Made by a program: the position numbers and the translations under genes. From IMG/VR virus record IMGVR_UViG_3300014038_000199: a DNA stretch of 64,000 nt, one strand, 5' to 3'. The notes beneath the pieces are model-generated. The model did no database searches. It was not told the DNA's origin and worked only from the letters and a program-made list of their open reading frames with translations. This DNA is from a virus (taxonomy: Duplodnaviria > Heunggongvirae > Uroviricota > Caudoviricetes). This document shows positions 6,409 through 63,373 of the stretch, one piece after another; position 1 is the stretch's first letter, and each line of letters begins with the position of its first letter.

Positions 6409-7302
6409 ATGGGTTTAGATGATATAATAGAGAAAGCCATAGTTACTGAGGATAACGGTAATGATATCAGAGAAACCGCTAAGAAAGTTACTAAAGGCAT
6501 AGTAACTGAAATAAGCGGAAAAGATAATAATGTTATTAAGCCTGTTATAAATAATGTTATAGGTTTTATGTCTGCTGGAGGCGGAGCAGGAGCAAGTACT
6601 ATAGTAGCCAATACTGCTAAATTAATAAAGAAAAAGGGATTATCTGTAGCTATAGTAGATTTGAACATAGTTTATCCGAGTCAGCACTTATATTTTTCTA
6701 TACCACAGGAGTTGGGTAGAAATGATATTTATAGTCTAATGTCAGGTAAGTCAGAACTAGGAGCAAGTTTAGTATACTCTGGCGATATAGCTTTGTTATT
6801 AGCAAATAATCGTGGAATAGTTGATTATATAAACGGAGATGATAAGTATTTTTCAGCCAACCTTGAGAAAGCTATAGATAATTTAAGTTATCGTTTTGAT
6901 GTAGTTTTGATTGATTGTCCTTTGGATGTTTCTAATAGCTATGTAAATGCTTCATTATACAAAATAGATACTTTATATTTAGTTATAGATGATGGTGTTC
7001 AGTCAATTATAAATGTACCAAAGATAAGAAATGCTTTTGACAGATTTGGTATAGGTTTTGGAAAATGTAAATTTGTTATGAATAAAAGAACCAGTAATTT
7101 TTATAATGAGAGCAATTTATCTAAGGCTGACATTAAATTGATTGAGATTATACCTTTTGATTTAGGCATAATAACATCTGGATTAAGGTGTGAATTATAT
7201 GTAGATAAAGGAATTGGTGTAGACAAGACTAGTAAAGAAGTTGAGAAAGCTTTTAATAGTTTATGTGAAAAAATACTAAGTATAGGGGGCTATAAGAAGT
7301 AA
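6409..7302 (+). CDS. TadZ/CpaE-like atypical MinD/ParA-family protein (Lys-less Walker A).
   Basis: P-loop-like GFMSAGGGAGASTIVANTAKL lacking the canonical Lys. Walker-B-like FDVVLIDCPLD. Operon context with TadA. Confidence 0.5.
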   Translation: MGLDDIIEKAIVTEDNGNDIRETAKKVTKGIVTEISGKDNNVIKPVINNVIGFMSAGGGAGASTIVANTAKLIKKKGLSVAIVDLNIVYPSQHLYFSIPQELGRNDIYSLMSGKSELGASLVYSGDIALLLANNRGIVDYINGDDKYFSANLEKAIDNLSYRFDVVLIDCPLDVSNSYVNASLYKIDTLYLVIDDGVQSIINVPKIRNAFDRFGIGFGKCKFVMNKRTSNFYNESNLSKADIKLIEIIPFDLGIITSGLRCELYVDKGIGVDKTSKEVEKAFNSLCEKILSIGGYKK

Positions 7303-8796
7303 ATGAAACCTAGTGATTATTTAGAGTTATCCTCTAAAAGAGATGTTAAGAAGAACTTTATATCTGATAATAACGACCAGACTAAAAATATAGATTTTGT
7401 AGTTAGCGAGTGTAGAAAGTTCCTCAACCTTAACGCTTATGAATACTCCAATAAAACTGGAGATGAAAAAAAGGCAATGCTACAAAACCTTATAAATAAA
7501 TTTATAGAAAATATAAATTATAAGGTCAGTGGATTTATTACATCAGATGGAAAATTAAATGTTAATGAGTTATTAAACAAATTATCTCAAGACATTACGG
7601 ATTATGGTATTTTATCTGCTGCTATGTATGATGATGAAATATCAGAGATACAAATAAACGGTAAGGAAATTAAGGTAGAGAGAAAGGGAAGGATAGAAGA
7701 TTACAGAGATAGTTCTGATAGGATTTTATCTTTCAGTTCTACAGAACAACAAGATGTAGTATTTAAGCGTTTATTAGGAGATACAAGACTATCACCTAAG
7801 GATGCAATTTCAAATGCAAGAACAGTTGAGGGTTATCGTATAGCTGCTGTTCATCATAGTGTTATAGCTATGGATACTTTAGTTTCTTCAAACAATGGTT
7901 ATAATTATGCTGTTATTCGTAAGTTCAGAAAGCAAAAAATGCCAATACAGCAGTTGGTTAAATATGAAACTATGAGTGATAACATGGCAAAGTTTCTTGG
8001 AACAATGATAGAGGGTGGTTCCACTTTCTTAACAGTTGGACAGACTGCTTCTGGTAAGACTACAACCAATCAATGTATTTTGGATACTGTTCCTAGTGAT
8101 TTAAGAACTATACTTATACAGAATCCATCAGAGATTGACCTTGCAAGAAGAGATAGTACAGGTAGAGTTACCAACAATGTTGTTCATTTTGAGGCAAGGA
8201 GCATAGAAAATCCAACTGAAGCAGACCCTACGATGGAGAACTTTATGAACCAGTCATTAAGATTTTCTCCAACCTTTATATCCTTTGGTGAGTTGAGATT
8301 GGATTCAGAGTTTACTAGGGCTATGGCAGCGGCGTTGGCTGGACACTCTTTTAATTGTACCTTCCACGCTGGTAGTAGTCATGGTGCTATGCTAAGATAT
8401 GCTACAGCTTATGAAGCTGGTTCTGGAAGTAATAGAGAAACAGTTATGATAAACTTAACGAGCCATGTTAATTTCATTATAGTTCAAGATATAATGAAAG
8501 ATGGTACTCGTAAGATACTTCAGATAACAGAAGTTTTAGGAACTAAGAAAGATGATAGGGCTGAACCAGACTTAAATGATTTGTACATTTTTGATGTAGG
8601 AGAAACAGACTATGATGAGAATGGCAAAATAATTAAAATAAATGGTACTCATAAGAGAGTAGGAAAGTTATCAGATGCTACTGTTCGTAAATTTAAGTTA
8701 CATGGAGTTAATCCTGATAAATATTCTTTCTTGTTAGGTGATGCTACGGATGATGAAGTAGAAACTTATACAGGAGACTTTGAGTTTGGGAGGTAG
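7303..8796 (+). CDS. TadA/CpaF-type secretion ATPase (VirB11/GspE superfamily).
   Basis: Walker A TVGQTASGKTT. Asp/Glu boxes. ISFGELRLDSEF (GEIR-like). His box NCTFHAGSSHGAMLRY. Confidence 0.7.
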   Translation: MKPSDYLELSSKRDVKKNFISDNNDQTKNIDFVVSECRKFLNLNAYEYSNKTGDEKKAMLQNLINKFIENINYKVSGFITSDGKLNVNELLNKLSQDITDYGILSAAMYDDEISEIQINGKEIKVERKGRIEDYRDSSDRILSFSSTEQQDVVFKRLLGDTRLSPKDAISNARTVEGYRIAAVHHSVIAMDTLVSSNNGYNYAVIRKFRKQKMPIQQLVKYETMSDNMAKFLGTMIEGGSTFLTVGQTASGKTTTNQCILDTVPSDLRTILIQNPSEIDLARRDSTGRVTNNVVHFEARSIENPTEADPTMENFMNQSLRFSPTFISFGELRLDSEFTRAMAAALAGHSFNCTFHAGSSHGAMLRYATAYEAGSGSNRETVMINLTSHVNFIIVQDIMKDGTRKILQITEVLGTKKDDRAEPDLNDLYIFDVGETDYDENGKIIKINGTHKRVGKLSDATVRKFKLHGVNPDKYSFLLGDATDDEVETYTGDFEFGR

Positions 8797-8799
8797 TAC

Positions 8800-9795
8800 A
8801 TGGGTTCAATAAATAAAGCTTTAACTACTACTAGCGGTGTAACAGTAAGTGCATTATTAATAATAGCTCTTGCAGCTTTGTTTTTTATATTTTACATATT
8901 AAAGTTTCGACCTGGCGATTGGTTAACTGGTTTAGCTAAGCTTATACTAAAGATTACTGGTAAGAATATAAATAAAGCAGAGAGGGATTATGAAAGAAAC
9001 CTTGAGATTGGAAGATATAAGCAAAAGTCAATAAGAGTAAAAGTTTATAAGTTTTTGAATGATTTAACTATAGACTTAGACCTTAAGTCATCTGGGTATA
9101 CTCCTTATACTTTATTATTTTTTATAGTTGCTGTCAGTGTTGTTATAGCTTTTATTGTAAGTAATATTGTATTTAGAAATTTATGGTTATTTATTTTTGC
9201 TTTTCCTATTGTTTTTGCTGCTATAGCCTGTTTTTTATATACTAGGGCTAATATAGCACATGATAGCCGTATAGATGATGTTATAGCTTCTGAAAATATT
9301 ATAAGTAACAATGTTAGTAAGGGAGTTGTAGTTTCTATAAGAATGAATTTAGATAGTTTTCCTATTAAATTACAGCCTGTTTTCAGGGAATTTGTAGATA
9401 GTGTGGAAACAAGAAATACTCATGTTAGGACAGCATTGATTGAGTTAGGAAGTAACCTTGGTTCTGTATCTGACGACTTTATTCAAAAGTGTATAACATT
9501 TGAGTTAGAAGAGGAGCATGGTTTAGTAGGAATATTTAATGATGTTGTAGAAGTAAACAGCATTAAGAGTGAGTTTAGGATTTATATGAAGCGTAAGTTT
9601 GAGGAGGTTATGTTTGAGTTTATAATGGGATTAGGAATGATATTCTTTTTCCTTGGTGGTATTATAGCCTTATATCCTATGCTACAAAAATTTTATTTTG
9701 TTAATATTTTCGGTCAGATATTGTTATTATTAGATGGGCTTTTAATAGTAGATGAGTTTGTTTATATAACATATCTAAGAGCACAAGAGTTATAG
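8800..9795 (+). CDS. TadB-like (GspF-family) platform membrane protein.
   Basis: About 330 aa, with hydrophobic helices at the N-terminus, middle and C-terminus, immediately downstream of the TadA-like ATPase. Confidence 0.45.
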   Translation: MGSINKALTTTSGVTVSALLIIALAALFFIFYILKFRPGDWLTGLAKLILKITGKNINKAERDYERNLEIGRYKQKSIRVKVYKFLNDLTIDLDLKSSGYTPYTLLFFIVAVSVVIAFIVSNIVFRNLWLFIFAFPIVFAAIACFLYTRANIAHDSRIDDVIASENIISNNVSKGVVVSIRMNLDSFPIKLQPVFREFVDSVETRNTHVRTALIELGSNLGSVSDDFIQKCITFELEEEHGLVGIFNDVVEVNSIKSEFRIYMKRKFEEVMFEFIMGLGMIFFFLGGIIALYPMLQKFYFVNIFGQILLLLDGLLIVDEFVYITYLRAQEL

Positions 9796-9805
9796 GAGGG
9801 TATTA

Positions 9806-10873
9806 ATGGTTTCAAGTAATTTAATTATATTAGCCTCTGCTGTAGGTAATTATGGTATAAACAATAGTAATGACATTAATATAGGCGATGGCTTTAAGTA
9901 TGAGTATTTCAATCCTATCACATTAAAGTTATTAAACAATTACGGATTTATAAAAATTCTTGTTGCTATAATACTTGTAGTATTAGCCTTTCTTATAATA
10001 AAAAATATGATGGGAATACGAAGCATATTTACATCAAAGGCTGTCAGGACAGAGATAGACAACTATAATAACCTTAGAGATAGGGATAGTAGAATACTCC
10101 ATGCTAATAAGTTTATTAGGGGAATAACAGGGTTTATAACAAACAAAGGTTTTAGAGTAAATCCATCTTATAAAGAGTACTTTCAGTATAATTTAGATAG
10201 AGCAAATGTCAGGATACCTGGCGGAAGTAGAATATATACTCCTGATGAATTTAACAGCTTAAAAGTGTTGTTTATTTGTTTAGTAATACTTATAAGTTTA
10301 TTAGTTTCTTGGTTTGTATCTCCATTCTTTGGTTTTATATTAGCTGTTGTAGTTGGTTCTGCTATAAATATACTTCCAATGATGATTATAAGACGAATAG
10401 TAGCAGCTAAGGACAGTGAGATAAGAGAAGATTTTCCAGATTTATATTTAATGATACATTATGAGATAATGAGTGGTGCAAAAACTCCATTAGCTAAGGC
10501 TTTTACTTCTTATAGAAGAGTTACAGACTCTATAGAGATGTTAAAGTTTGTAGATACATCTATAAATATGTTTGAAACTTATGGGGATGAAGAGGCTGCT
10601 ACTAGAATAGCTAAGATTTATAGAGAAATACCTGAAGTTACTAGGTTAATGCGTCTTATAAATCAGTTACATACTGGTGGAGATGTTAAAAAAGAGTTAA
10701 ACGGATTTAGGGAACAAATAATAAAAGATAAAAAGTACAGATTAGAGGTTAAAATGAATAAGTTAATCATTAAGGCTAAGATGTCGTTTTATTTAAGTTA
10801 TATTGTTTTAGCCCAAGCAATTATAAGTGCTATGGCTTTATTTTTCCCAGATTTGAATTTTTTCAGGTTATAA
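9806..10873 (+). CDS. TadC-like (GspF-family) platform membrane protein.
   Basis: Second paralogous polytopic protein of about 355 aa with the same topology pattern. Confidence 0.45.
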   Translation: MVSSNLIILASAVGNYGINNSNDINIGDGFKYEYFNPITLKLLNNYGFIKILVAIILVVLAFLIIKNMMGIRSIFTSKAVRTEIDNYNNLRDRDSRILHANKFIRGITGFITNKGFRVNPSYKEYFQYNLDRANVRIPGGSRIYTPDEFNSLKVLFICLVILISLLVSWFVSPFFGFILAVVVGSAINILPMMIIRRIVAAKDSEIREDFPDLYLMIHYEIMSGAKTPLAKAFTSYRRVTDSIEMLKFVDTSINMFETYGDEEAATRIAKIYREIPEVTRLMRLINQLHTGGDVKKELNGFREQIIKDKKYRLEVKMNKLIIKAKMSFYLSYIVLAQAIISAMALFFPDLNFFRL

Positions 10874-10975
10874 AGCTATAAAACTAGAATTTAAGAACTG
10901 GTTTAAGTTTATTAGGTGTAAGAGTAAATAAGATAAAATACTCTTGATACACAGTATATAGGAGGAAAATAAAAA

Positions 10976-11236
10976 TTGAAAAAGATATTCATAGGGCTTA
11001 TCACAGCGGCTGTAATGGTAACAATAGGTTATATAGCATTAAGAATTGTATTACCAAATACTTATATGTCAATGACTAATGCTATTGAAAAGGGAATCAA
11101 GAGCGGTACAGGTATTGCATTTGACCTTAACGGAGATGGTCAGATTGGTACTGGAGCAATGCCAAATACTAATTCTTTGAACGAGAAAGCTAAACAGGGT
11201 GATAATACTGTTACAGGATTAGATGGTTTACATTAA
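10976..11236 (+). CDS. Small N-anchored pilin-like protein (candidate major subunit).
   Basis: 86 aa with TTG start and a strong RBS. N-terminal hydrophobic helix then a Gly-rich tail. No canonical G/xxxxEY Flp cleavage motif. Confidence 0.3.
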   Translation: MKKIFIGLITAAVMVTIGYIALRIVLPNTYMSMTNAIEKGIKSGTGIAFDLNGDGQIGTGAMPNTNSLNEKAKQGDNTVTGLDGLH

Positions 11237-11325
11237 TTTTTAAGATGTAACCTATTAAGTCAACTTAGGCTACAATACACTATTGTAGCCTATTTTAATT
11301 CTATTAGAATAGGAGGTTACGGATT

Positions 11326-11868
11326 TTGAGTGATGCATTGAGATTTATATTTAAGACATTTATAAAGATACCTTTTATAATAATGATTTCTTATTTCCTA
11401 GTTAATTTACTTTTGTTTTCGTTGTATTATTTCAAGTTTACTGGTATAAGTTACAGTGTAATGAATACTGCAATGGAGAATAATTATATACCAGAAAATG
11501 AGTATGGAACTATAAAAAAGACTATAGATGACATAAAGAATAGTAGCGTACTTATAAAGGATGCTGACATTGTAACTGACACTCCAAATAAAAGAAAACA
11601 ATATGGAAGTAAGGTAAAAGTAGGTGTTAGATATACTTATAGATGGTTAACACCTTTAATGCCTTGGGATACAGGTCAAACTCCCTCTGATATAAGAGGT
11701 GGAACTAGTATAATTGATGATAGTACTGCCAGTGAGGGAAATTTATCTTCTATAACTGCTGAGGAGGCAAGGAGAAGAATAGATGCCTTATCAGATAGGT
11801 CATTAAATTCACCAATAGAAATAGTCTATGAGGTGCCAGGATTGCAATACTATCCTGATATGAATTAG
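11326..11868 (+). CDS. N-anchored protein, candidate minor pilin (TadE-like).
   Basis: TTG start with RBS. Single N-terminal TM followed by a soluble domain. Confidence 0.3.
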   Translation: MSDALRFIFKTFIKIPFIIMISYFLVNLLLFSLYYFKFTGISYSVMNTAMENNYIPENEYGTIKKTIDDIKNSSVLIKDADIVTDTPNKRKQYGSKVKVGVRYTYRWLTPLMPWDTGQTPSDIRGGTSIIDDSTASEGNLSSITAEEARRRIDALSDRSLNSPIEIVYEVPGLQYYPDMN

Positions 11869-11885
11869 TTTATGAGGATACTTTA

Positions 11886-12887
11886 ATGGGTAGTGGTATA
11901 AAAAGTATATTTAAGGTTCTTATATTTTTTACTTTATTTGTTACAATAGGGATGCTTATTATTGAGGTATATAATTTGACTATAGCTAGTGAGTTATTAA
12001 AATCTACGGCTCATGCTACTTTAGAGAGGTCTTGTGATTATTTTGCTCAGGAGAGCTATAAGAATGGAAGTGGAAATGCATATCAGTTAAGAGGATACAA
12101 TAGTAGTTTAGATACTTCCTTAAACGGACAATTTTATTATGGTTCTGACTCTCAAGTTTATGATAAATTATATACTAACAGTGATGAATTTGCAACTTAT
12201 GTTAATAGATTTAAGGATAATTATAGGAAACTTAAGGTATTAGGTAAAGGTTTAGGTTTAACTCATGATATTTTACTTGATGGTGAGGATGCTATAGGTT
12301 CTTATTACAGACAAGGCTTGGTAACTCCATTAAATATAGGTATAGCATACTTAGATAGAGGTACTGTTGAAAAGATATTCAAATGGGAATTAGTTGCTGT
12401 ATTATCTTCTGGGCAAGACGATATGATAATTACAGACCCTGCTGATGGCAGTAACCCTTATGTTTTATATAAAGGGTTTAGAATTTATTATAACTCTATA
12501 CAGTTAGAGGATCCTTCTTATAAAGTTTATGATTTATTTAATAGTGATGATAAGAAAAAATTTGAAGAATTAACTAACATAGAAGTTGATGATTATATGC
12601 TAAGGGCTAGGATAAATGAATCAGATGAGCGTAGATATATAGTTGTAGCTAATATGAATTATAAAGTTCGTGTAGGATATGAGGGAATAACTCCCATAAG
12701 AAGGCTTTTTCAGTGGGTAGTTAATACAGGAGATGATGAAAGATATGATATAAACAATCCAAAGTGGAGTGGAGATACTACTTTAAGTAGGGTAGGAGCA
12801 AGAAATGAGGACTTTTTTAGGTCAGGTTTAAGATATGACTCTTCTGTGGGAATAGGAAATAAGATTATATACTATATAGTCAGATAG
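11886..12887 (+). CDS. N-anchored protein, candidate minor pilin (TadG-like).
   Basis: N-terminal TM (VLIFFTLFVTIGMLIIEVY) plus a soluble domain of about 300 aa. Confidence 0.3.
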   Translation: MGSGIKSIFKVLIFFTLFVTIGMLIIEVYNLTIASELLKSTAHATLERSCDYFAQESYKNGSGNAYQLRGYNSSLDTSLNGQFYYGSDSQVYDKLYTNSDEFATYVNRFKDNYRKLKVLGKGLGLTHDILLDGEDAIGSYYRQGLVTPLNIGIAYLDRGTVEKIFKWELVAVLSSGQDDMIITDPADGSNPYVLYKGFRIYYNSIQLEDPSYKVYDLFNSDDKKKFEELTNIEVDDYMLRARINESDERRYIVVANMNYKVRVGYEGITPIRRLFQWVVNTGDDERYDINNPKWSGDTTLSRVGARNEDFFRSGLRYDSSVGIGNKIIYYIVR

Positions 12888-12895
12888 GAGGTTTA

Positions 12896-13531
12896 ATGTT
12901 TAGTTTATTCGGAAAAAAGAAAGCAAAAGAGCCTGTAGAAGAACTTCCAATAGTAGATAAGGCATTATTGATTTTAACGGATAACCCAAAGGCTGGTATG
13001 GTAGATTATTTTAAGTCTTTTGATATAAAGATTAAGGGTTTATATAAAAGTTTAGATGATTTAAGAACTGAATTAATTTTATATAGTTCAGATATACCTA
13101 CCAGATTAGTTATTGTAGACAGTGGAGTTGATAAGTTTAACTCTACTGGAAACGGAGATAATAATTTATATGATATATTAGAGTTGGCAAGTAATAAGGA
13201 CTTTGATATTACTGTATTAACTTCTAATAAAGGCTTAGTAAAAAGTGTAAAGAATATACTTAAGAAATTAGGTAAAGCAGTTAATGATAAAGCTGATTAC
13301 TCAGAGTATGACAGTATAAATTCTATAATAGAAAAGTTAAGTTCTTATAGAGAACATTATATAGAGAATGGAGCAACAGATATAGTTTTAGAAGAGCCAT
13401 TAAAATTTAAGGGGCAAGAGGTAGATGTGAAGTATCAAACTGGAATAAAATACAATGATTTTGAAACTTTAGCAGGTATATCAGATGATACTTTAGGAAA
13501 TAGTTTAATAGCTTTTAAGGTTAAGATTTAA
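12896..13531 (+). CDS. Receiver (REC)-like standalone domain protein.
   Basis: ALLILTDN ... RLVIVDSG pattern resembling a CheY-like/pseudo-receiver fold, comparable to the TadZ N-terminal domain. Confidence 0.3.
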   Translation: MFSLFGKKKAKEPVEELPIVDKALLILTDNPKAGMVDYFKSFDIKIKGLYKSLDDLRTELILYSSDIPTRLVIVDSGVDKFNSTGNGDNNLYDILELASNKDFDITVLTSNKGLVKSVKNILKKLGKAVNDKADYSEYDSINSIIEKLSSYREHYIENGATDIVLEEPLKFKGQEVDVKYQTGIKYNDFETLAGISDDTLGNSLIAFKVKI

Positions 13532-13539
13532 TAATACAT

Positions 13540-13590
13540 AAGAGATAATTTTAATTTACCTATTTTAGTGATTAAAGTTATCTCTTTTTT
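13540..13590 (+). terminator. Weak hairpin plus T-run after the Tad-like module.
   Basis: AAGAGATAA ... TTATCTCTT with a large loop, followed by TTTTTT. Confidence 0.3.
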
Positions 13591-13630
13591 GTTATTAAAG
13601 CCTGTAAGTAATTAAAGTATAATTAAATGT

Positions 13631-13659
13631 TTGAATTAGAACTTTTATTGTTATATAGT
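13631..13659 (+). promoter_or_regulatory. Candidate promoter TTGAAT-N17-TATAGT upstream of the ParM-like gene.
   Basis: Hexamers at 13631-13636 and 13654-13659. TTAAAG triplet repeats occur nearby. Confidence 0.35.
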
Positions 13660-13766
13660 TATGAAAGTAAGTTCAGATGTAGCATAAAAGCTAAGAAAGA
13701 GAGTTTATGAGTTTAATTCAAGCATTTTTGATTGATAATTTTAATTTCAAGGAGGTAACTAAAATA

Positions 13767-14948
13767 ATGTTACATGTTTGTACAGACCAAGGTGCTTCAT
13801 GCACTAGATATTCAGCAAATAACAGTAAGGTGTATAAGAACCCTAATAACTTCATTACTGTAGAACCTGATGAAGATATCAGATATATACCACACAGCGA
13901 TGAATTTGTTGATAATATGGACTTAACAATTACTAAAGATGGTGATAGCGATTTCTTTCCTAAAAGGATACTTGGAGGAACTTTAGCAGATAGGTATTCA
14001 AGTTCTTCTGTTAAGCCAAGCATGCTTTCAAGCAAGAGTAAGCAACCAGTTAACTACTATAGCATTATTTCATCAGTTGTGGACTCTATACTGCTTAAAG
14101 AGGGTTCATTAAATGGAGAAAATCCTGTAGAGGTAGCTTGCTATATATGTTTACCACCTGTTGAAATTACGGGTAATAATGAAAACGAGGACTATGTAAA
14201 GGCACAGCTTAAAGGAAAGTATACGGTTAAGTTAAATAAGATGGATAAAGAGATTACTTTTAATATAAGAGAAGTGAGCATTTATCCAGAGAGTGTAATG
14301 GCTGTTGTTGCTTTTCTATTTAATCAAGATGCTACACAGCGTACAGAGATGGCTAAGTACAATAAAGGAAATGTACTAAGCTTTGATATAGGTGCAAGTA
14401 CCTCTGATTTAGTTATAATAAATGATAGAAAGTTTGTGGAGCATTCTGGATATACCTGTAAGCTTGGTGGAAATATCATAGATGACTTACTTCGTAATGA
14501 AATTCGCAGAAAGTTAGGTGTAGAAGTTTCCAACGATGACATAGCAGAGGCAGTAAGAACAGGTAGACTTGCTTATGGAAGTTCTTATAAAGATGTAAGC
14601 GAAGAGTTAAAGAAGTGTAAAAAGCAGTTTGCAAAAATGCTTTTTGAGAAGATTCAGAACTACTTTGCTACTAATGGAATGGGATTGCAGTCTATTAAGG
14701 CTATATTTATGAGTGGCGGAGGTTCTATGCCATCAAGTTACATAGATGAGTCTGGTAAAGAGATAGTAACTTCTCCATCTGTTGGCGAGTACATAGATGA
14801 GGAGATTAAAAAAGTATGTGACAGCATTGACATGGTACTTTCACCGTCTGTAAATCCTAGGGAGTGCAATATAGTTGGATTAATACTTAGTATGAATGTT
14901 CAGAGAAAGCAATCTCAAATTCAGAGCAATAAAAGTAAAAAAGAATAA
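13767..14948 (+). CDS. ParM/Alp-like actin-family ATPase (plasmid segregation type II).
   Basis: Start re-assigned to the ATG at 13767, which has a strong RBS (aaggagg) and is in frame with the track ORF. N-terminus MLHVCTDQGASCT resembles ParM MLVFIDDGSTNIK (phosphate-1). Phosphate-2-like FDIGASTSDLVII. C-terminal MSGGGS. Confidence 0.6.
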   Translation: MLHVCTDQGASCTRYSANNSKVYKNPNNFITVEPDEDIRYIPHSDEFVDNMDLTITKDGDSDFFPKRILGGTLADRYSSSSVKPSMLSSKSKQPVNYYSIISSVVDSILLKEGSLNGENPVEVACYICLPPVEITGNNENEDYVKAQLKGKYTVKLNKMDKEITFNIREVSIYPESVMAVVAFLFNQDATQRTEMAKYNKGNVLSFDIGASTSDLVIINDRKFVEHSGYTCKLGGNIIDDLLRNEIRRKLGVEVSNDDIAEAVRTGRLAYGSSYKDVSEELKKCKKQFAKMLFEKIQNYFATNGMGLQSIKAIFMSGGGSMPSSYIDESGKEIVTSPSVGEYIDEEIKKVCDSIDMVLSPSVNPRECNIVGLILSMNVQRKQSQIQSNKSKKE

Positions 14949-14992
14949 GAAAGGAGAGGGCTTATAGTAGTTTATGAGTCCTTAAAGATAAA

Positions 14993-17137
14993 ATGCTAAA
15001 GACAGCTATATTAGTATGTAAGCAGTCTAAAATAAGATTAAAGCATACAAAATCTTATAGGGCTATTACAGAGAAAGAGTTTTTAAGGTTTATGGAATAT
15101 GATACTTCCATAAACCTTGGTATCATAGAGATAGATAAAGATGCTACTGATGAAGTCATTGGTAGCATAATAAAATTGGTAGACTATTGTGAGTCCAATT
15201 TGAATAAAAGAGTTATACTAATGTCTTATAAGAGTGATGTTAGTATGGATTATGTTGCTTATAGTGTAACCGAGTTACAAGAATTGATAGAGGCTGAAAC
15301 AGGCTATGATGTAAGTACATATATAAAAGAAAGTTTATTTGATGAACAGCAAGAAGTTCAGGTATCTCAAGTAGAGAATGATTTATCATCTATTGCTGAA
15401 TTTGAGATACCTGATGAAGAAGAGAAAGAAGAAGAGAATATAGAGGTCATCAAGATTATCAAAAATATAGAAGAGCGTAATATAGAGAATGAAAAGATTA
15501 AAGACCTTGAGATGATAATTGATGACCTCAAAGAAAAATTAGATAAATCAGTAAGCGTTAATGCTGAATTAGAGAGTACAAGAGAAAACTTATTAAAATC
15601 GAAGAACGAAGCTGATAATGAAATTGTTAGATTAACTTCTGAATTAGAGTCTAATAAGCATAAGATAGCGGAGTTAGAGAGTAATAACTATGCTGGAGAG
15701 ATTGAAAGGCTTGTTAAAGAATTAGATAGTTATAAGATAAAAGTATCAGCTTTAGATGAAATAGAAGATAAACTCAGGGAAATAAATAGTCTATGTGATG
15801 AAAAAGACAAAACTATCAAAGACCTTGAGAATAGCATAAAGGACATTGAAAAAAAGGATAGAAGAAATGAGATAGTATTAGAATTAAATTCAAAAAGAGC
15901 AGATACTATTAGGTTTATAGATAAAATCTATGTAGACCTCAAAAATACCATAAATGTTCTTAAGACCAAAGATAGTGAATTACATGAAGCTTTAAGAGAA
16001 GTTAGGGAATTGACCGATGATTGTAATTCACTTAAAGAAAGTTTGAATAGTGCAATAAGCAGAGAGAAAGATTATACAAATAAAGAGGTTAAATATAAAG
16101 AAAATATAAGTTTATTAGAGTCTAACTTAGATAAATTAGGGGAGGATTACAGTAACTCTAACAGACTTTTAGAAACATATAAATCTAAGGTATTAAGTGC
16201 TGAAGCTTCTATTGCTCAAAGTGATGTGATAAAAACTAAGTTAAGCATTACTGAAAAAGAGTTAAAAGCTAGGATTGCTGAAATTGCAGATAAGGACATT
16301 GAAATTAAGAGATTAAACTCTAGTGTTAATACTAAAGAGGTGATAACTATTGGGGTTGATAAAGTATTCAGTTCTTTTGAATATAAAGGGAATGCTAAGT
16401 TAATAACTGTGTTTGGCGGTGGCAGTTATGGCATAACTAACATAGCTTATTCAATAGCCAATAAGTTAAAAGGCAAGGTATTGTTTTTAGATTTTGACTT
16501 ATTTAATCCAAAGTCTGATAAATATACTAAGAAAAATCCAATGGTAAGTGTAACAGGTGTACCTAACAATTTGTACAGAACTGGTGTAGGTGTATTGTAT
16601 AGTTGTGGCATAGATAAGTTTATAAGTGAATATGATAAGCTTGTTATAAAAGTTCTGAAAATAAAGGAACTTGAGTTAAGTTGGATAAGCGGATTGTATT
16701 CAATATTAAAGTTAGAAAATTTAGATTATACATCTGAATTTTTTAATTATATAGGTAGTTTATATGATTATATAATAATAGACTCTGGTAAATTAGGGTA
16801 TTCTAATATAAATAACAGCTTAATTAAGAGTTTATGTGAGGTCAGCTATAAGAATTTAGTAGTATCAAGTAATGATACTGTAAGTATAAGGGGAATCGGA
16901 TTAGCGTTAAATAAAGTTAAGTTATCTAATGTAGATTGGATATTAAATTTAAGTAACAATTCTATTATAAGCGATAAAGCTAAAAAGAGTATCGGAGACA
17001 GTTCATATTATATATTACCTTTCAGTAATTCTATCTTTGGTACTGATAAATTGATAATAGACGATAATAATATAGATGGAAGATTATCAGCTTATCTTAG
17101 TAAGTTTGGATTGGAGGTAAATAAAGTTGGATTATAA
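14993..17137 (+). CDS. TadZ-like protein with three parts: REC-like N-terminus, long E/K-rich coiled coil, and a C-terminal Lys-less MinD/ParA-like domain.
   Basis: Heptad-rich charged region covers roughly residues 130-440. C-terminus has VFGGGSYGITNIAYSIANKL and IIIDSG, paralogous to the 6409 protein and the C-terminus of 60914. Confidence 0.45.
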   Translation: MLKTAILVCKQSKIRLKHTKSYRAITEKEFLRFMEYDTSINLGIIEIDKDATDEVIGSIIKLVDYCESNLNKRVILMSYKSDVSMDYVAYSVTELQELIEAETGYDVSTYIKESLFDEQQEVQVSQVENDLSSIAEFEIPDEEEKEEENIEVIKIIKNIEERNIENEKIKDLEMIIDDLKEKLDKSVSVNAELESTRENLLKSKNEADNEIVRLTSELESNKHKIAELESNNYAGEIERLVKELDSYKIKVSALDEIEDKLREINSLCDEKDKTIKDLENSIKDIEKKDRRNEIVLELNSKRADTIRFIDKIYVDLKNTINVLKTKDSELHEALREVRELTDDCNSLKESLNSAISREKDYTNKEVKYKENISLLESNLDKLGEDYSNSNRLLETYKSKVLSAEASIAQSDVIKTKLSITEKELKARIAEIADKDIEIKRLNSSVNTKEVITIGVDKVFSSFEYKGNAKLITVFGGGSYGITNIAYSIANKLKGKVLFLDFDLFNPKSDKYTKKNPMVSVTGVPNNLYRTGVGVLYSCGIDKFISEYDKLVIKVLKIKELELSWISGLYSILKLENLDYTSEFFNYIGSLYDYIIIDSGKLGYSNINNSLIKSLCEVSYKNLVVSSNDTVSIRGIGLALNKVKLSNVDWILNLSNNSIISDKAKKSIGDSSYYILPFSNSIFGTDKLIIDDNNIDGRLSAYLSKFGLEVNKVGL

Positions 17138-17894
17138 AGTAAGATTAGGGGCTACTTTATCCTTTAATTTAGGACTTGAGAGGGATATGGTTGAGCAAAT
17201 AAATAAGTTAAAGGCTAGGCATAAGCTTGGAGAGTTTATCAGTAATTCTCTTAGAATAGTATTTGAAAACCCCGAACTGTTAGAAAAACAAGGAGTAAGC
17301 CTTGCTGAGTATGGATTAACTGATAATAGAAAGAAATTAAATGATGCTATTCGTACTGAAATAATCAGAATGAATAATAAAATTCAAAAGACATACAAAA
17401 TGGCTTATGAAATGTATAGTTTAGCAAAGTTTAATAAGCAGTTAAATTTATATGATTGTTCAAGGAACATACTAGCCAGTCAGTTTATATTAGCTAAACA
17501 AATAGAAGATTTAAGAAGATTATTAGGGGTCAGTAGTATAGAACAACCTGTAAATTTACATAAAGTAGATACCAGCATAGATGATATTTTAGAGTACATA
17601 TTATTAACTCATTCAGAAATAGTAGATGAGTTAAAAGAAAGCTTGACTGGTAGTAATGACTACTTGAAAAAGTTAAATGACCTAAAAGATTTAGCAGATA
17701 AGCATATTGCAAAAGAAGTTGAAACTAGTGAGCCTCAGTCTGAACTCGAAAAAGAAGATAATGAAGATAGTAGCGATTCTAATATGGCTCGAGACATAGT
17801 AGTTGAAGATGAAAAAGAAGATGAAGCTACTGATTTTGAAATAAGTGATGATGCAAATATGAATGATTTAGCTGATTTAATTAATTTGTTTTAA
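17127..17894 (+). CDS. Ribbon-helix-helix-like DNA-binding protein with an acidic C-terminal tail (possible ParR-like adaptor).
   Basis: N-terminus KVRLGATLSF (beta strand), ERDMVEQINKLKARH (helix), LGEFISNSLRIV (helix). C-terminal D/E-rich tail. TTG start with RBS. Confidence 0.3.
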   Translation: MDYKVRLGATLSFNLGLERDMVEQINKLKARHKLGEFISNSLRIVFENPELLEKQGVSLAEYGLTDNRKKLNDAIRTEIIRMNNKIQKTYKMAYEMYSLAKFNKQLNLYDCSRNILASQFILAKQIEDLRRLLGVSSIEQPVNLHKVDTSIDDILEYILLTHSEIVDELKESLTGSNDYLKKLNDLKDLADKHIAKEVETSEPQSELEKEDNEDSSDSNMARDIVVEDEKEDEATDFEISDDANMNDLADLINLF

Positions 17895-18799: not shown

Positions 18800-19021
18800 A
18801 TGAAAAAGTTTGCGGTTTATTTTATAAACAGTAATAAAAAGAGTTGTGTACTTTGCTTAGAGAATGATTATGATACTGCTCAAGTTAAGTACAAGATATA
18901 TAACAGATTGGGAAATGTCAGGATACATGAATATGAGAGTAATACTTCCATAGATGAAGATTTGGAAAGTTTATTAGAATTAGAAGATAAGATAGACAGT
19001 TTAGGGGGCGTTGATGAGTAG
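18800..19021 (+). CDS. Small hypothetical protein.
   Basis: ATG at 18800 with an aggagg RBS is preferred over the track start at 18782. Confidence 0.3.
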   Translation: MKKFAVYFINSNKKSCVLCLENDYDTAQVKYKIYNRLGNVRIHEYESNTSIDEDLESLLELEDKIDSLGGVDE

Positions 19022-19889
19022 AATACATTTGATAATAGATTTTATGCCTTTGTATTATAAGTACTTTTTTAAGTTAAAATGTGGGAAACTTTCTAAATTA
19101 AGTTATAATGATTTAGACACTACTTATTTATATTACATAACAAAAGAGATAGAAGATTCTTGTAAATTGGTTTCTAAAGATAGAGAAAACATTTTAATAA
19201 GTGTTTGTTTTGATTCTAAAGGCAGTAAAAGAAAAGAAATAGATACTAATTATAAGAGTAATAGGGATACGAACCTTGAGAGTTATGATTTTGACATGAT
19301 AGATAATTTTATATACCCTATATTTGATAAACTATATGACTCTTATAAATTGGATGGATATGAGGCAGATGATATAATAGTAGGTTTAGCTAAGCATACA
19401 GATAATTTTGATAAGATTTATGTGATGTCACCTGATAAAGACTTGTCTCATCTGATAAATGATAAAGTCAGTTGTATTAAAAATTCTACAATGAACAGTA
19501 GTAAATATATAGTTGATATGTATAGCTATGAGGATATATTGACTAGTAAACTTGGAGCAAGAATACCTTATAATTCAATCTTATTATATCTATGTACTGT
19601 AGGAGATAGCTCAGATAACATTAAAGGAGTTAGCGGTTTTGGTAAATCAGCCTTTAATAAATTAATACTAAGCAATAAAGAATTTGATTATTCTTCTTTA
19701 GATACAAAAGATAACATACTTAAGTTTTTAGAGAGTATATTTGATGGAGATAAGTTAAGTCAGGCTAAACATAGTTTAGATTTAGTATATCCTTTTGATT
19801 TAGAAATAGAATTAAAGGATTCAAATTCAGATAGAGATGTCAAATTTAAGGAGTTTATGGCTTATGGATTCAAAAGTTTAATTTATTAG
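19011..19889 (+). CDS. 5'-3' exonuclease / flap endonuclease (PIN plus H3TH), T5 D15/Pol I 5'-exo type.
   Basis: N-terminus IHLIIDFMPLYYK (LLLVDG.SLAFR-like). GYEADDIIVGLAKH matches the EADDVIATLA motif. TVGDSSDNIKGVSGFGKSAFNKLI matches the H3TH LVGDSSDNIPGVPGIG motif. Confidence 0.7.
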   Translation: MMSRIHLIIDFMPLYYKYFFKLKCGKLSKLSYNDLDTTYLYYITKEIEDSCKLVSKDRENILISVCFDSKGSKRKEIDTNYKSNRDTNLESYDFDMIDNFIYPIFDKLYDSYKLDGYEADDIIVGLAKHTDNFDKIYVMSPDKDLSHLINDKVSCIKNSTMNSSKYIVDMYSYEDILTSKLGARIPYNSILLYLCTVGDSSDNIKGVSGFGKSAFNKLILSNKEFDYSSLDTKDNILKFLESIFDGDKLSQAKHSLDLVYPFDLEIELKDSNSDRDVKFKEFMAYGFKSLIY

Positions 19890-27856: not shown

Positions 27857-27934
27857 AATTGTAAGATATAGTAATACTATAATTACTGCAACAAAGGAAT
27901 CTATATTAAAAAAGCAAACAATATAACTACGGCA

Positions 27935-29745: not shown

Positions 29746-29782
29746 TAAGTTCAAAGGAACTAAAAAGAAAGGAAACTAGTTT

Positions 29783-51901: not shown

Positions 51902-51931
51902 ACTCCAACAACTAAGTTGGAGTTTTTTTAA
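51901..51931 (+). terminator. Rho-independent terminator.
   Basis: AACTCCAAC-aactaa-GTTGGAGTT followed by TTTTTT. Confidence 0.7.
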
Positions 51932-51968
51932 TACTGGTTTAAGTTTATAGAGTAGGAGGATAAAAATA

Positions 51969-54611: not shown

Positions 54612-54622
54612 GGAGGTATATT

Positions 54623-59641: not shown

Positions 59642-60917
59642 TGAGAGATTAAAGCTTAACAGAAGTAGGGATAAGATGTTTATCCCTATGAATGTTGAGG
59701 GTGGTGGATACGATGAAAAGTTCTTAAATACCACAAAGATATTAACTATAGTAAGTATAGCTGTAACTTGGGTAGTTGTTGTAACTTGGTTAAATTCCTT
59801 GCAAAATGCTACTATATTATTCAAGTTTATAAGTTTATTTGTATTATTTTTTATAACATCTTTGTTAGTAAGGTTTGTTATTTTTGAAGAGAGTTACTTT
59901 TATAAGATGTATAAGAAAACACTAACTTATAAAAACCCAACTAGTGATGTATTTTGGAACATATCAAGTATTAAAGATACACCTAATGGTTCAATCCTTT
60001 TATTTTCAGACTTAAAAATTGGTGTTTTAATTAAATTAAAAAGGGGTTCAATCATAGGAAAGAATCAAGATTTCAGAGAACAGCATTACGATGCTGTTTC
60101 TGATTTCCTTAGTGAGATAGTAGGTAGAAGATATAGCTTTGTTCATTTGAATATGATGGAAAGAGCAGATAATGATGATAGATTAGACAGGTTAGGGCTG
60201 TTTATAGGTCAAACAACCAATCCAAACATGAAAAGGTTACTTGAATTACAGCTAGGGCATTTAAGAAACACTACTAGAAATGGTTTATATGAGAGTGATT
60301 ATTATTTAATCTATACTGACAGAGCGGATAGGTTAGATAGCATAATGAGGGATATAGAAGATTGCCTTGAATTTGTTTTAGATGGTTCTTATACAGGATA
60401 TTTTGAGTTAGATAAGAAAGAAACAGTAGATGTGCATAAAGAATTAATAGGGGTATCCTATTTTGATTATAATAATGCTACTGTAAATACTTTTAGGGAG
60501 TATCAAATTGATGATAACCCTGCTATAACACTTAAAAAGTTAAATTTAGCTAATGGTTCTGTAATAGAATTAAGTAAAAATGATGATGCATTTTTAAGAA
60601 AGTTAGCATCAGATATAGATGCCAATAATTATTCTGATATAGCTGTATTAAAGAAATTAACTGATAATAGAAATATGGATTACAGGTTAAGGTCTAATAT
60701 AGATTTAGAGAAGTATAATAAAAAAGAAACTAAGAGCAATAAAAACAAAGAGATAAACATAAATTTATTAGATAATATTGATTTAGTTTCATTAGAAACT
60801 GAGGAAATGACTAAGAACTTAAGTAATAGTGTTCATAGCATTAAAAAAGAAGAAGAAAGTATAGAAGATTTAATAAACAGTTTAAGTGATGAGGATGACG
60901 AGGAGATAAGTCTATGA
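59634..60917 (+). CDS. N-terminally anchored membrane protein.
   Basis: Start re-assigned to the TTG at 59634, which has an aaggagg RBS and overlaps the upstream stop by 8 bp. Two TM helices (ILTIVSIAVTWVVVVTWL, FISLFVLFFITSLLVRFVIF). Confidence 0.4.
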   Translation: MNSERLKLNRSRDKMFIPMNVEGGGYDEKFLNTTKILTIVSIAVTWVVVVTWLNSLQNATILFKFISLFVLFFITSLLVRFVIFEESYFYKMYKKTLTYKNPTSDVFWNISSIKDTPNGSILLFSDLKIGVLIKLKRGSIIGKNQDFREQHYDAVSDFLSEIVGRRYSFVHLNMMERADNDDRLDRLGLFIGQTTNPNMKRLLELQLGHLRNTTRNGLYESDYYLIYTDRADRLDSIMRDIEDCLEFVLDGSYTGYFELDKKETVDVHKELIGVSYFDYNNATVNTFREYQIDDNPAITLKKLNLANGSVIELSKNDDAFLRKLASDIDANNYSDIAVLKKLTDNRNMDYRLRSNIDLEKYNKKETKSNKNKEININLLDNIDLVSLETEEMTKNLSNSVHSIKKEEESIEDLINSLSDEDDEEISL

Positions 60918-63373
60918 AAATATTAATATGTGCTGGTGATAAAAGTAATAATTTATTAGATGCATTGGGGAAAAAATTTTCTGATGGATCTATAGAGTTT
61001 GATAAAGAGTGTTATGTAAGTGATATAAACGACTATTTGAATAAGGGTGGTTCATTTAATAGGATAGTAGTGACTGCTCAGGCTATTGATAAAGATGGAA
61101 CTTTTGCGAGTAATATAGAATATCAGATGTTTATTATAGCTACTTTAGTTGAAATTCTAAAAGAAAGACAACCTAAGTCAGATTTAGTTTTTCTTTTAGG
61201 GGATAATAACGAACTAGCCGACATAGCATATAATGAGTGTTATTCCTTGGGAGATAGGGTAAGAGTACTTCATTTAACTAAGGATGTTAAAGTAACTGTT
61301 AATTTATTAGTTAAAGTGTGTGTATTGCCTTTTGATAAGATGGATGTTGACATTATAAATACTTACATATACAAAGGAACTGATGTATCGTCTAATATAA
61401 GTGCTACAGTAGGAACTGATAACAACTTTACTAATATGGTTAGAGTAGGAGACTTAGATGAAGAATCTAATGAATTTGATACTACTGAGCCAGGTTATCA
61501 AGATACGGATAATTACAGTGAATTTGATGAGAGTGGATTTGAAGAAGATTTTGATAATACAAATGACTTTGAAGAAGATGACTTTGAGAGTGATGACTCT
61601 ATTGAAACAGATGAATTAGGGGAAGATTTTTATGAAACAGAAGAAATAGAAGTTGATAAAGATGAAAGCATAGATGAAAGTTTATCTGAAGATTATGAAC
61701 ATAATTTTGATGAAGATACAGATGGTATTGAAACAGATTATGAAAGTGATTTTGATACAGATAGCTTTGATACCTCTGATATAGAAGATGAAGCAGACTA
61801 TGAAAGCGATTTTGATACAGATAGCTTTGATACCTCTGATATAGAAGATGAAGCAGACTATGAAAGCGATTTTGATACAGAGGGCTTTGATACAGAGGGC
61901 TTTGATACAGAGGGCTTTGATACAGAGGGCTTTGATACAGAGGGCTTTGACAAATCAGATACAGAGAATTTTGATGGAGATAGCTTTGATACATCTGATA
62001 TAGAAGTAGATGACTTTGATAGTAATGGATTTGATACAGAGGACTTTGATGAAGATAGCTCAGATACAGAGGACTTTGATACAAATAGTGATATTGAAGT
62101 TGCAGATGGAGAATTTGATAGTTCAGATGGTGATACTGACTTTGCAAATGGAGACTTTGATAGTTCAGACGGTGATATAAATAACTTTGATATTGAAGAT
62201 GATAGCAATGGCGTAAACTCTGATCTAGCAGAGGATGATTCTGATACATTCGAGAGTGAAAATGATTTAGCTAATGATTTATTTGATATAGAGGATACAG
62301 ATGATAGTGAAATAGATGAAACTGATAAATTATTTGAAACTGAGCCTGATGAAGCTGAGCCTGAAAATGAAGAAATTGAGACAGAAGATGTTATAAATAA
62401 TATAAGTAATAATAATTCAAATACCAGTGAAGTTCCCAAGAAAAAAAGTTTATTTGGAAGAGCCAAAGAGTCTAAAACATCTAATAATTCGAATGTTTCT
62501 AATAAAACAGACTTAACTGAGTTAAAAAAGATTTTAGATTCTTATAGTAGAAGAGGACATTGTATGCTAGTATCTGGAACTTCTAATAGTGGTACTACTA
62601 CCTTAGCTGGTAATATAGCTAATGTAGTTGCTGGATTAGGATATAATGTTGCTATAGTTGATTTTGATTTAAGTAAGAGAGGACAAACTTATTTAAGTAG
62701 AGATGCTTTTATGGCAGTAAACAGTGATAGTAACTATACAGATACTCTTATGAAAGTAATAAATAATAGAAATTCAAATATAAGTGCTAATAGTGCAATA
62801 GTAAAAACTGGGTTAAATTTATTTGGAACAAGTGTAGAAGAGGATACTCCTAATATAGAAAAGATAGTTAAGAGTCAAAATGATTTAAGGGATTTTATAT
62901 ACAATTTGAAAACCATATATAACTTTATAGTTATAGATAGTCCTATAGATTACTTAGATAAGTACTTATCAGAATTAGTAATATGTTCAGATAGTATAGT
63001 ATTAACTGTAGAGCCAACAAATAAAAGTTTATTAGAGTTTACCATGAACTTAGTAAATATAGAAGAGTATAAAGTAAGCAGAGATATTTTTAGTAGAGCA
63101 AAGATTGTAGCTAGTAAGGATAGTGGTTCTGTTGATAAGATATTAGGTAAAAAATGTAATAATTATAATAGCATGCTAAGATTGTTAGACCAACATATTT
63201 ATGATGTAACTGGAAATGAGACAGGTGGAATGTTTTCTAATTTAAGAGTATCGGGAGTTATTCCTAGCATAGCAAATTTAGATTCATACATATACAGCAA
63301 GGGATATTTCAGCGATACTAAGCTAGGAAAGGAGATGTACTTAAGTGTTTTAAGTGCTATAATGATAGGATGA
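60914..63373 (+). CDS. TadZ-like protein: REC-like N-terminus, long acidic FDTEG/FDTD repeat linker, and a C-terminal Lys-less MinD/ParA-like domain.
   Basis: N-terminus MKILICAGDKS (receiver-like). C-terminus VSGTSNSGTTTLAGNIANVV plus NFIVIDSPIDY. ATGA overlap with the upstream gene. Confidence 0.5.
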   Translation: MKILICAGDKSNNLLDALGKKFSDGSIEFDKECYVSDINDYLNKGGSFNRIVVTAQAIDKDGTFASNIEYQMFIIATLVEILKERQPKSDLVFLLGDNNELADIAYNECYSLGDRVRVLHLTKDVKVTVNLLVKVCVLPFDKMDVDIINTYIYKGTDVSSNISATVGTDNNFTNMVRVGDLDEESNEFDTTEPGYQDTDNYSEFDESGFEEDFDNTNDFEEDDFESDDSIETDELGEDFYETEEIEVDKDESIDESLSEDYEHNFDEDTDGIETDYESDFDTDSFDTSDIEDEADYESDFDTDSFDTSDIEDEADYESDFDTEGFDTEGFDTEGFDTEGFDTEGFDKSDTENFDGDSFDTSDIEVDDFDSNGFDTEDFDEDSSDTEDFDTNSDIEVADGEFDSSDGDTDFANGDFDSSDGDINNFDIEDDSNGVNSDLAEDDSDTFESENDLANDLFDIEDTDDSEIDETDKLFETEPDEAEPENEEIETEDVINNISNNNSNTSEVPKKKSLFGRAKESKTSNNSNVSNKTDLTELKKILDSYSRRGHCMLVSGTSNSGTTTLAGNIANVVAGLGYNVAIVDFDLSKRGQTYLSRDAFMAVNSDSNYTDTLMKVINNRNSNISANSAIVKTGLNLFGTSVEEDTPNIEKIVKSQNDLRDFIYNLKTIYNFIVIDSPIDYLDKYLSELVICSDSIVLTVEPTNKSLLEFTMNLVNIEEYKVSRDIFSRAKIVASKDSGSVDKILGKKCNNYNSMLRLLDQHIYDVTGNETGGMFSNLRVSGVIPSIANLDSYIYSKGYFSDTKLGKEMYLSVLSAIMIG
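61741..61880 (+). repeat. Near-perfect 60-bp tandem duplication (2.3 copies) inside the 60914 CDS.
   Basis: tgaaag(t/c)gattttgatacagatagctttgatacctctgatatagaagatgaagcagacta appears twice with one mismatch, plus a partial third copy. Confidence 0.85.
61871..61945 (+). repeat. Perfect 15-bp x5 tandem repeat (tttgatacagagggc) encoding (FDTEG)5.
   Basis: Five identical contiguous units inside the 60914 CDS. Confidence 0.9.

Follow-up and report, generated by a model that had tools for sequence, protein, structure and literature searches.

We report three proteins, A, B and C, encoded in a 64,000-nucleotide (nt) stretch of DNA (hereafter the window; IMG/VR record IMGVR_UViG_3300014038_000199), each of which ends in a domain that profile comparisons assign to the MinD/ParA fold and in which both lysines of the canonical nucleotide-binding loop have been replaced. 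Spatial organisation in bacterial cells depends chiefly on ParA/MinD proteins. TadZ, a ParA/MinD-like factor that is described as localising at the pole and as carrying an atypical receiver domain, is the known case of a localisation hub without the lysine. Here a single element carries three lysine-less proteins with three different arms (none in A, a rigid coiled coil in B, an acidic disordered repeat in C), each encoded at a different machine. Protein A is of a known type, and B and C are new domain architectures. On balance we lean towards reading all three as TadZ-like, ATP-binding, dimeric adaptors for localisation or assembly, mainly by analogy with TadZ.

A preliminary description of this DNA had quoted three open reading frames (ORFs) with unusual P-loops, and we find them in the sequence as quoted: GGGAGAST at residues 57-64 of A (nt 6577-6600), GGGSYGITN at residues 475-483 of B (nt 16415-16441) and GTSNSGTTT at residues 555-563 of C (nt 62576-62602). 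Its statement that the Walker-A lysine is missing can be extended, as the signature lysine is gone too: in register with the GKGGxGKTT loop of MinD and Soj, both positions are replaced across the A, B and C families. In the alignment of A with MinD 1ion, SAGGGAGAST lies over SGKGGTGKTT with both lysines replaced. The C-family profile matched the same structure at 4e-4, placing SGTSNSG(T/S)TT over SGKGGTGKTT, and the B family aligned to Soj with sGSyGiTT over KGGVGKTT and a YDYIIID segment that is identical in Soj.

The replacements are a property of whole families. Every A-type relative, even at 34% identity and in elements whose GC content spans 30-46%, carries (S/G)xGG(A/V)G(A/T)ST; C-type proteins have GTSNSG(T/S)TT, without lysine; and B-type proteins have GSGSYG(I/V)TT. 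At the Walker-A position of 151 B-type domains we counted Ile 79 times, Val 48 times, Thr 17 times and Lys once, the last in a protein (P0091, GIGSCGKTT) that may be an evolutionary intermediate. Base composition is not the cause of the loss, since the adjacent TadA-like motor retains GQTASGKT. In a separate observation, a 407-residue JGI metagenome protein of GC-rich appearance (P0046; motifs FFSAGGGAGAS, SPSQHLY and VMNKY) joins a cyclic-nucleotide-binding domain and an A-type lysine-less domain in one chain; the A-type P-loop therefore also occurs beyond this element family, where it is combined with another sensory head.

Searches against curated models and solved structures bear out the atypical, TadZ-like MinD/ParA domain for all three proteins. 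As single sequences A and C match ParA/MinD models directly, though far below curated thresholds, and the A-family profile matched Aquifex MinD (PDB 4v03) at 3.7e-15 over residues 47-259, near full length. The C-terminal domain of B as a single sequence found no match in Pfam, NCBIfam or PDB, and shallow profiles were weak. An 11-sequence B profile had Soj (6iub, E 0.0036) as its top PDB match with the P-loop and Walker-B segment in register, and its top matches comprised Soj, Wzc, VpsO, ParA, Get3 and BchL. With 151 sequences the B profile gave an in-register, full-length alignment to Thermococcus MinD, aligned to the A family at 96.5% over 190 columns in hhalign (E 8e-10) and to the C family at 92.6%; A and C aligned at 96.2% (E 2e-9). 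The pairwise comparison of the C-terminal domains thus finds them homologous to each other and to MinD/ParA at the level of profiles.

Apart from the lysines, the nucleotide site is kept. All three families retain a glycine-rich loop, the Ser/Thr that follows the lost lysine, a switch-I aspartate (in a DxD motif, or DxN in A) and the Walker-B aspartate. S63, T64, D84 and D169 are invariant in the A family, as are T562, T563, D583, D585 and D675 in the C family, and T482, D500, D502 and D597 are invariant or almost so in the B family. The Walker-B-like segment had been described as IDxP, which fits A (IDCP) and C (IDSP) and fails in B (IDSG). Near-invariance of the glycines, Thr/Ser, switch-I Asp and Walker-B Asp across very divergent sequences is the pattern expected if Mg-ATP is still bound, and it makes us think it improbable that the P-loops are relics in pseudo-enzymes that bind no nucleotide and act as rigid interaction modules, as the loss of both lysines in all three families and the bulky Tyr/Phe and Ile/Val residues in the B-family loop might otherwise suggest. 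A precedent points the same way: Eubacterium rectale TadZ is reported (Xu et al. 2012, as cited in PMC10482377) to have lost both conserved lysines and to remain an active ATPase, in which the signature lysine is made up for by one on a neighbouring helix. A TadZ-like protein without the lysines is thus nothing new, and because this TadZ reportedly hydrolyses ATP without either of them, the label "non-hydrolysing" given to A, B and C in the preliminary description cannot be concluded from sequence.

Protein A lies within a Tad-like gene block (Table 1). It is the minimal copy, as had been proposed; only 48 residues precede the MinD-like domain, so A has no receiver domain. Its gene ends one base before the start of the gene for a TadA-like secretion ATPase, and the two adjoin in all eight related loci that include the TadA-like gene. 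We found 46 A homologues, on contigs of up to 307 kb. By position, A is the counterpart of TadZ/CpaE in a Tad locus. At the head of the block, related loci have an ORF of similar size in the place of the CpaB/RcpC-like gene. Downstream, the order of the genes for two polytopic membrane proteins is kept in six relatives (L001, L004, L011, L013, L025 and L027), and the products themselves had no Pfam or NCBIfam match; the pilin-like and pseudopilin-like ORFs that follow (10976-12887) are likewise kept in related loci. The next ORF, at 12896, has two aspartates (D29 and D75) that are invariant in an alignment of four relatives, and Pfam, NCBIfam and PDB-profile searches at the sequence level gave no receiver signal for it.

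Protein B differs in organisation. The preliminary description had given it a receiver-like N-terminus and a long coiled coil, and both hold. Its N-terminal ~116 residues form a domain kept in 128 of 150 family representatives, for which AlphaFold2 (AF2), run on a 41-sequence alignment, returned a model with a predicted local distance difference test score (pLDDT) of 91.4. The model has the CheY-like alpha/beta fold of receiver domains, without helices alpha1 and alpha4, and Foldseek agreed weakly on the receiver class (best E 7.6e-3, template-modelling score 0.55), its matches including a Burkholderia pilus-assembly protein. A nearly invariant glutamate, Glu46, stands at the end of beta3, at a place matched to the phospho-acceptor aspartate by secondary structure rather than by superposition, and K7-V8-G9 follow beta1. 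Since Glu takes the place of the phospho-acceptor Asp and beta1 is not followed by an acidic pair, the modelled domain is an atypical receiver that probably cannot be phosphorylated. The spacer that follows is rich in Glu (16%), Lys (13%), Leu (10.5%) and Ile (10%), shows a heptad pattern, is low in Pro and Gly, and matched only SMC-type coiled coils in NCBIfam. Across the family this linker varies from 145 to 626 aa, with Pro and Gly together at 2.9%.

B-type proteins form a large, undescribed family that the curated Pfam and NCBIfam libraries miss. An exhaustive search of a 1.84-billion-protein library yielded 241 cluster representatives, 229 of them below 1e-10, which sets the family at no fewer than 241 sequence clusters. 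Most members are 700-1000 aa long, with the lysine-less domain at the C-terminus. Scanning 185,579 species-representative genomes with a trimmed family alignment produced one B-type match, and tblastn searches with the C-terminal domain of B and with a consensus-like family member found no match among PLSDB plasmids or GenBank phages.

The surroundings of B are equally constant. An actin-like gene lies directly upstream in every locus examined, a Lachnospiraceae metagenome-assembled genome (MAG) included, and in all nine loci examined B stands between this gene and an ORF of the type found here with 255 aa. The actin-like family profile matched Bacillus thuringiensis ParM (4xhp) at 7e-11, Alp7A at 5e-6 and pCBH ParM at 6e-3 in the PDB; as these are its best solved relatives, we read the protein as an actin of the segregation type. 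A PilM_2 match in one relative (L012) had raised the candidate of a PilM-type pilus component, which we rejected on the same ground. The 255-aa ORF follows B in L011, L012, L013 and L014, and similar-sized ORFs do so in L025-L027. Its N-terminus has a Y-x-[IV]-[RK]-L-G...L-S-F strand-helix-helix pattern resembling a ribbon-helix-helix (RHH), and its C-terminal tail is conserved and acidic (AD[FM]..L..[LF]FG). Pfam and PDB-profile searches gave it no support and the RHH assignment carries no statistical support, so that by layout it is a candidate ParR-like adaptor.

These genes travel with the Tad-like block. The order DHH - x - A-type - TadA - two membrane proteins - ~88 aa - x - x - x - actin-like - B-type - next ORF is kept in the same six relatives that preserve the membrane protein genes, from 68% down to ~21% identity in B; a 224-kb contig with a GC content of 41% is among them, as is a contig from an NCBI MAG. 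Because A and B share one conserved block, gene order makes it plausible that the Tad-like machine and the actin-like protein are functionally linked.

About 11 kb beyond B, an AT-rich non-coding stretch (27860-29780, GC ~0.25) carries a dense array of short repeats on one strand. The repeat AGTGAATTA occurs there in 16 copies at 27957-29628, all on the + strand, and in 20 copies in the whole window, where 2.15 were expected; it is often paired with AAACCTA, at a spacing of ~40 nt. Rfam had no match in this stretch, and the array is a candidate iteron, centromere or origin. Together with the actin-like gene and the RHH-like, acidic-tailed ORF that flank B in nine loci, such an iteron-like array could be taken to mean that B is a working partition NTPase (type Ib-like) with the 255-aa ORF as its ParB/ParG-like centromere binder, acting beside or in place of the actin-like protein and unrelated to the Tad-like machine. 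We regard this as unlikely: the Walker-A lysine is missing from 150 of 151 family members, a receiver-like head on a long coiled coil is unlike any ParA, the Tad-like block accompanies the actin-B pair in most loci, and the RHH pattern of the would-be centromere binder lacks statistical backing.

Protein C belongs to a separate module some 44 kb downstream of the end of B, and its tie to A and B is that they share an element. Its N-terminal domain has an alternating beta/alpha sequence pattern, no PDB-profile match and no receiver signal at the sequence or profile level. The linker is as acidic as had been described (41% Asp plus Glu, net charge -138, 24 FD motifs), and its FDTEG/FDTD blocks are encoded by DNA tandem repeats at 61729-62178 (a 15-nt unit repeated 5.3 times at 100% and a 60-nt unit repeated 2.8 times at 95%). 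Among C relatives the linker length and repeat number vary while NDLFDI...LFETEP and GLFGR motifs are kept. The five FDTEG units are missing from a relative that is 95% identical (L005), so that the length of the acidic arm must change fast.

C is preceded by giant ORFs (880 and 1672 aa), and an ORF of 183-184 aa comes directly after it in L005, L006 and L009, overlapping its stop codon in two of the three. Downstream of C in L009 the order is the ADP-ribosyltransferase-like (ART) ORF, an ORF of 469 aa, a VirB4/HerA/TraG-like ATPase and an FtsK/SpoIIIE-like ATPase; judged by gene content, this neighbourhood is a Gram-positive-style conjugation module.

How the three proteins are related bears on a further proposal, namely that one non-hydrolysing positioning ATPase was triplicated to give a single scaffold joining the Tad-like machine, the giant envelope proteins and the ParM filament. 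In its favour, A, B and C occur together here and, by alignment-based scans, on one related 295-kb IMG/VR contig; the lysines are absent from all three; A and B share the conserved block; and C follows the two giant ORFs. The kinship is nonetheless distant. Pairwise identities are 15-25%, and BLASTP detects A-C at 4e-4, B-C at 0.002 and A-B not significantly, so that "paralogous" stands in the sense of homology by profile (92.6-96.5% in hhalign) and finds weak or null support in pairwise comparison. The A profile is closer to MinD (4e-15) than to B or C (about 1e-9). With A nearer to MinD and BLASTP so weak, we read A, B and C as three old, anciently diverged lineages rather than a recent triplication, as far as profile scores can tell. 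The N-terminal domains of B and C and ORF 12896 showed no mutual similarity by BLASTP or profiles, and we dropped the idea of a domain common to them. Since lysine loss does not imply loss of hydrolysis and C lies in its own module, physically tied to the others by nothing more than the shared element, the triplicated scaffold seems to us quite unlikely. That the similarity is mere noise among generic Rossmann-like alpha/beta proteins of low-GC composition, as the lack of Pfam, NCBIfam and PDB matches for B alone and its weak shallow-profile comparison with A might hint, is very improbable given the 190-column alignment of the deep B profile to A, the in-register matches of B to Soj, Wzc, ParA and Get3, and the direct matches of A and C to MinD.

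If A, B and C are TadZ-like adaptors, each lysine-less domain would probably bind ATP and form a long-lived dimer, as the analogy with E. rectale TadZ suggests, and would serve localisation or assembly rather than act as a gradient-forming ParA motor. The role of protein A would be to bring the TadA-like hexamer to the TadB/TadC-like platform in the membrane or to position it there, and its receiver function may come in trans, with ORF 12896 as a candidate. Protein B is predicted to be a parallel coiled-coil homodimer whose 332 spacer residues, at ~0.15 nm each, would make a rod of ~50 nm, capped by two receiver-like heads and, at the far end, by the ATPase-like dimer. B would thereby tie the actin-like filament and the putative ParR-like adaptor to the Tad-like machine, the membrane or a pole. 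Protein C would place its ATPase-like dimer at the VirB4-like and FtsK-like conjugation ATPases, with the acidic disordered arm as a flexible, multivalent or DNA-mimicking tether.

Several points weigh against the adaptor reading. We infer nucleotide binding, dimerisation, protein-protein contacts and localisation from analogy. The curated CpaE/TadZ models (NCBIfam and the Pfam TadZ N-terminal domain) did not reach threshold with A, B or C; the best TadZ-type match, for A only, was TIGR03815 CpaE_hom_Actino at 25 bits, with a cutoff of 154. Solved TadZ chains were not among the sequence matches of the A family in the PDB. The fold of the B C-terminal domain comes from profiles, its AF2 model on a two-sequence alignment having a pLDDT of 38. 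The TadB/TadC, pilin and ParR-like labels follow from gene position, the region upstream of the actin-like gene showed no clear parC-type repeats, and the link between C and conjugation ATPases is seen in the relative L009, beyond the end of this window.

More speculatively, the actin-like gene, B and the 255-aa ORF could constitute an undescribed actin-based DNA-positioning system, in which B, a TadZ-like pseudo-ATPase on a coiled-coil stalk of ~50 nm, couples ParM-type filaments, and DNA held by the ParR-like adaptor, either to the cell pole or to an envelope machine of the Tad-like kind. We hold this possible, though some way from probable. If B does join an actin filament to a Tad-type machine, it would be a new coupling of DNA positioning to an envelope apparatus, so that a giant plasmid would be maintained or delivered in connection with a pilus or secretion apparatus. 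As a family, the module would then span at least 241 sequence clusters, nearly all of them from uncultivated giant elements, and would offer an experimental handle on how giant plasmid-like elements, of which the oral Streptococcus Inocles may be examples, are maintained or transferred.

Table 1. Features of the window that are discussed in the text, with positions, strand and supporting evidence.
Feature	Position (nt)	Strand	Evidence
CpaB/RcpC-like protein, head of Tad-like block	5519-6388	+	Weak: Pfam RcpC 0.009, TIGR03177 CpaB 0.0018
Protein A, 297 aa, MinD-like domain	6409-7302	+	Pfam AAA_31/MipZ/ParA ~1e-6; NCBIfam MinD 1e-9
TadA/CpaF/FlaI-type secretion ATPase, intact Walker A GQTASGKT	7303-8796	+	Pfam T2SSE 1.9e-18; NCBIfam FlaI 2.5e-26, TadA-family 6.5e-23
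Two polytopic membrane proteins in TadB/TadC positions	8800-9795, 9806-10873	+	Hydrophobic segments in translations
Pilin-like ORF, 86 aa	10976-11236	+	Translation; no family match
Two proteins, pseudopilin-like by position, with N-terminal hydrophobic helices	11326-11868, 11886-12887	+	Translations; no family match
211-aa ORF, candidate stand-alone receiver-like protein	12896-13531	+	Alternating beta/alpha pattern
Actin-like ATPase, ParM/Alp7A-like	13707-14948	+	Pfam MreB-like_C 2e-9, StbA_N 7e-5; NCBIfam ParM 2e-7
Protein B, N-terminal atypical receiver-like domain, residues 1-116	14993-15340	+	
Protein B, coiled-coil spacer, residues 117-448	15341-16336	+	Composition, heptad-like scores, SMC-type coiled-coil matches
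Protein B, C-terminal lysine-less MinD/ParA-like domain	16337-17137	+	Profiles; YIIIDSG at nt 16769-16789
255-aa ORF, overlaps B stop codon, candidate ParR-like adaptor	17127-17894	+	Alignment pattern
Stand-alone 5'-3' exonuclease	19011-19889	+	Pfam/NCBIfam scans
Family-A polymerase domain protein, 402 aa	25619-26827	+	Pfam/NCBIfam scans
IS110-like ORF after repeat array	29783-30766	+	
Clamp-loader (delta-prime-like) AAA+ subunit	46773-48179	+	Pfam/NCBIfam scans
HU	49427-49777	+	Pfam/NCBIfam scans
Protein C, N-terminal alpha/beta domain, residues 1-179	60914-61450	+	Conserved in alignments
Protein C, acidic repeat linker, residues 180-545 (366 aa)	61451-62548	+	Composition, tandem repeats
Protein C, C-terminal lysine-less MinD/ParA-like domain	62549-63373	+	Pfam AAA_31 2e-6; NCBIfam MinD 5e-7; FIVIDSP at nt 62924-62944
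184-aa ORF, overlaps C stop codon	63370-63924	+	Weak ART-PolyVal (ADP-ribosyltransferase) match

The window as a whole has ~30% GC and a GC skew of about +0.3 across all 64 kb, and every real-looking ORF of at least 100 aa lies on the + strand. Pfam and NCBIfam scans, which covered nearly all window ORFs, identified an NlpC/P60 hydrolase, a DHH protein, an SPFH protein, a 3D-domain protein and the ART domain. The element has its own split replication and repair set (exonuclease, family-A polymerase protein and clamp-loader subunit), plus HU. No tRNA was found in the window. In a relative of 75% identity (L001), the segment 4048-8952, compared with 3859-6388 of the window, has two IS605/TnpB-type ORFs (379 and 408 aa) flanking the DHH gene, which a resolvase ORF separates from the CpaB-like gene; among window ORFs of at least 100 aa, Pfam found no match of these kinds.

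Relatives of the window are metagenomic contigs of up to 307 kb and IMG/VR contigs of 85-295 kb; IMG/VR scans with a single B or C sequence found no match, whereas alignment-based scans did find relatives. These 85-295-kb contigs are classed as viral in IMG/VR, and the window proteins carry no phage structural signal: PHROGs searches with ten large window proteins of no family gave zero phage-structural or other functional matches. A near-identity DNA search with 5500-17200 found nothing in PLSDB plasmids or GenBank phages. Judged by the ParM-like, VirB4-like, FtsK-like and NlpC/P60 proteins and choline-binding repeats of the window or its relatives, the window looks like part of a giant conjugative element of plasmid-like character. 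Its similarities to the oral Streptococcus "Inocles" (PMC12340149) lie in the ~30% GC, strong GC skew with a single coding strand and 200-300-kb contigs, and in the VirB4-like and FtsK-like (coupling-type) ATPases and choline-binding repeats of the element or its relatives. The Inocle marker gene InoC is absent from the 64-kb window, and an Inocle origin is plausible.

Among known systems, TadZ/CpaE (E. rectale, A. actinomycetemcomitans, P. aeruginosa 4lda and Caulobacter CpaE) shares the atypical MinD/ParA-type domain with A, B and C. Like tadZ, the A gene sits in a tad locus beside a TadA/CpaF-type ATPase gene, and B lies in the same block, whereas C does not. Unlike TadZ, A is without a receiver domain; in B the two domains are separated by ~330 aa of coiled coil, and its gene adjoins an actin-like gene rather than tadA; and C, found near conjugation genes, has an acidic disordered linker of 366 aa. 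B thus has the domain logic of TadZ, its atypical receiver and its atypical ATPase domain being set apart by a coiled coil.

MinD, whose ATP hydrolysis on the membrane is stimulated by MinE, provides the closest solved relatives of A (Aquifex 4v03, Pyrococcus 1ion/1g3q), and C and B align to it in register. It differs in having both lysines in its KGGxGK[ST] loop, and there is no MinE/MinC context here. The division of labour that we suggest for A has a counterpart in Bdellovibrio bacteriovorus, where TadZA is a TadZ module without a receiver domain that works with RomR, a protein with a degenerate receiver; its authors suggest that TadZ functions are split between the two (bioRxiv 10.64898/2026.07.08.737194). 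Protein A and the candidate receiver-like ORF 12896 resemble this pair, except that the TadZ part is fused to TadA there and A and TadA are separate adjacent genes here.

ParMRC, Alp7AR and the B. thuringiensis ParM-ParR system resemble the B locus in the type of actin-like gene and in a downstream ORF of ParR-like layout. Actin-type partition systems have a small adaptor gene directly after the actin gene, whereas here a receiver/coiled-coil/ParA-like protein of 609-1043 aa always stands between the actin and the adaptor-like ORF. Our literature search returned general reviews only, and no description of a receiver/coiled-coil/lysine-less ParA protein between parM-like and parR-like genes. 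For C, the comparison is with Agrobacterium VirC1, a ParA/MinD-like protein that reportedly brings the DNA substrate to a type IV secretion system. VirC1 is said to have and to need its Walker-A lysine, and to have neither an acidic repeat arm nor an extra N-terminal domain; what it shares with C, as seen in L009, is that a protein of the ParA/MinD fold is encoded with conjugation ATPases.

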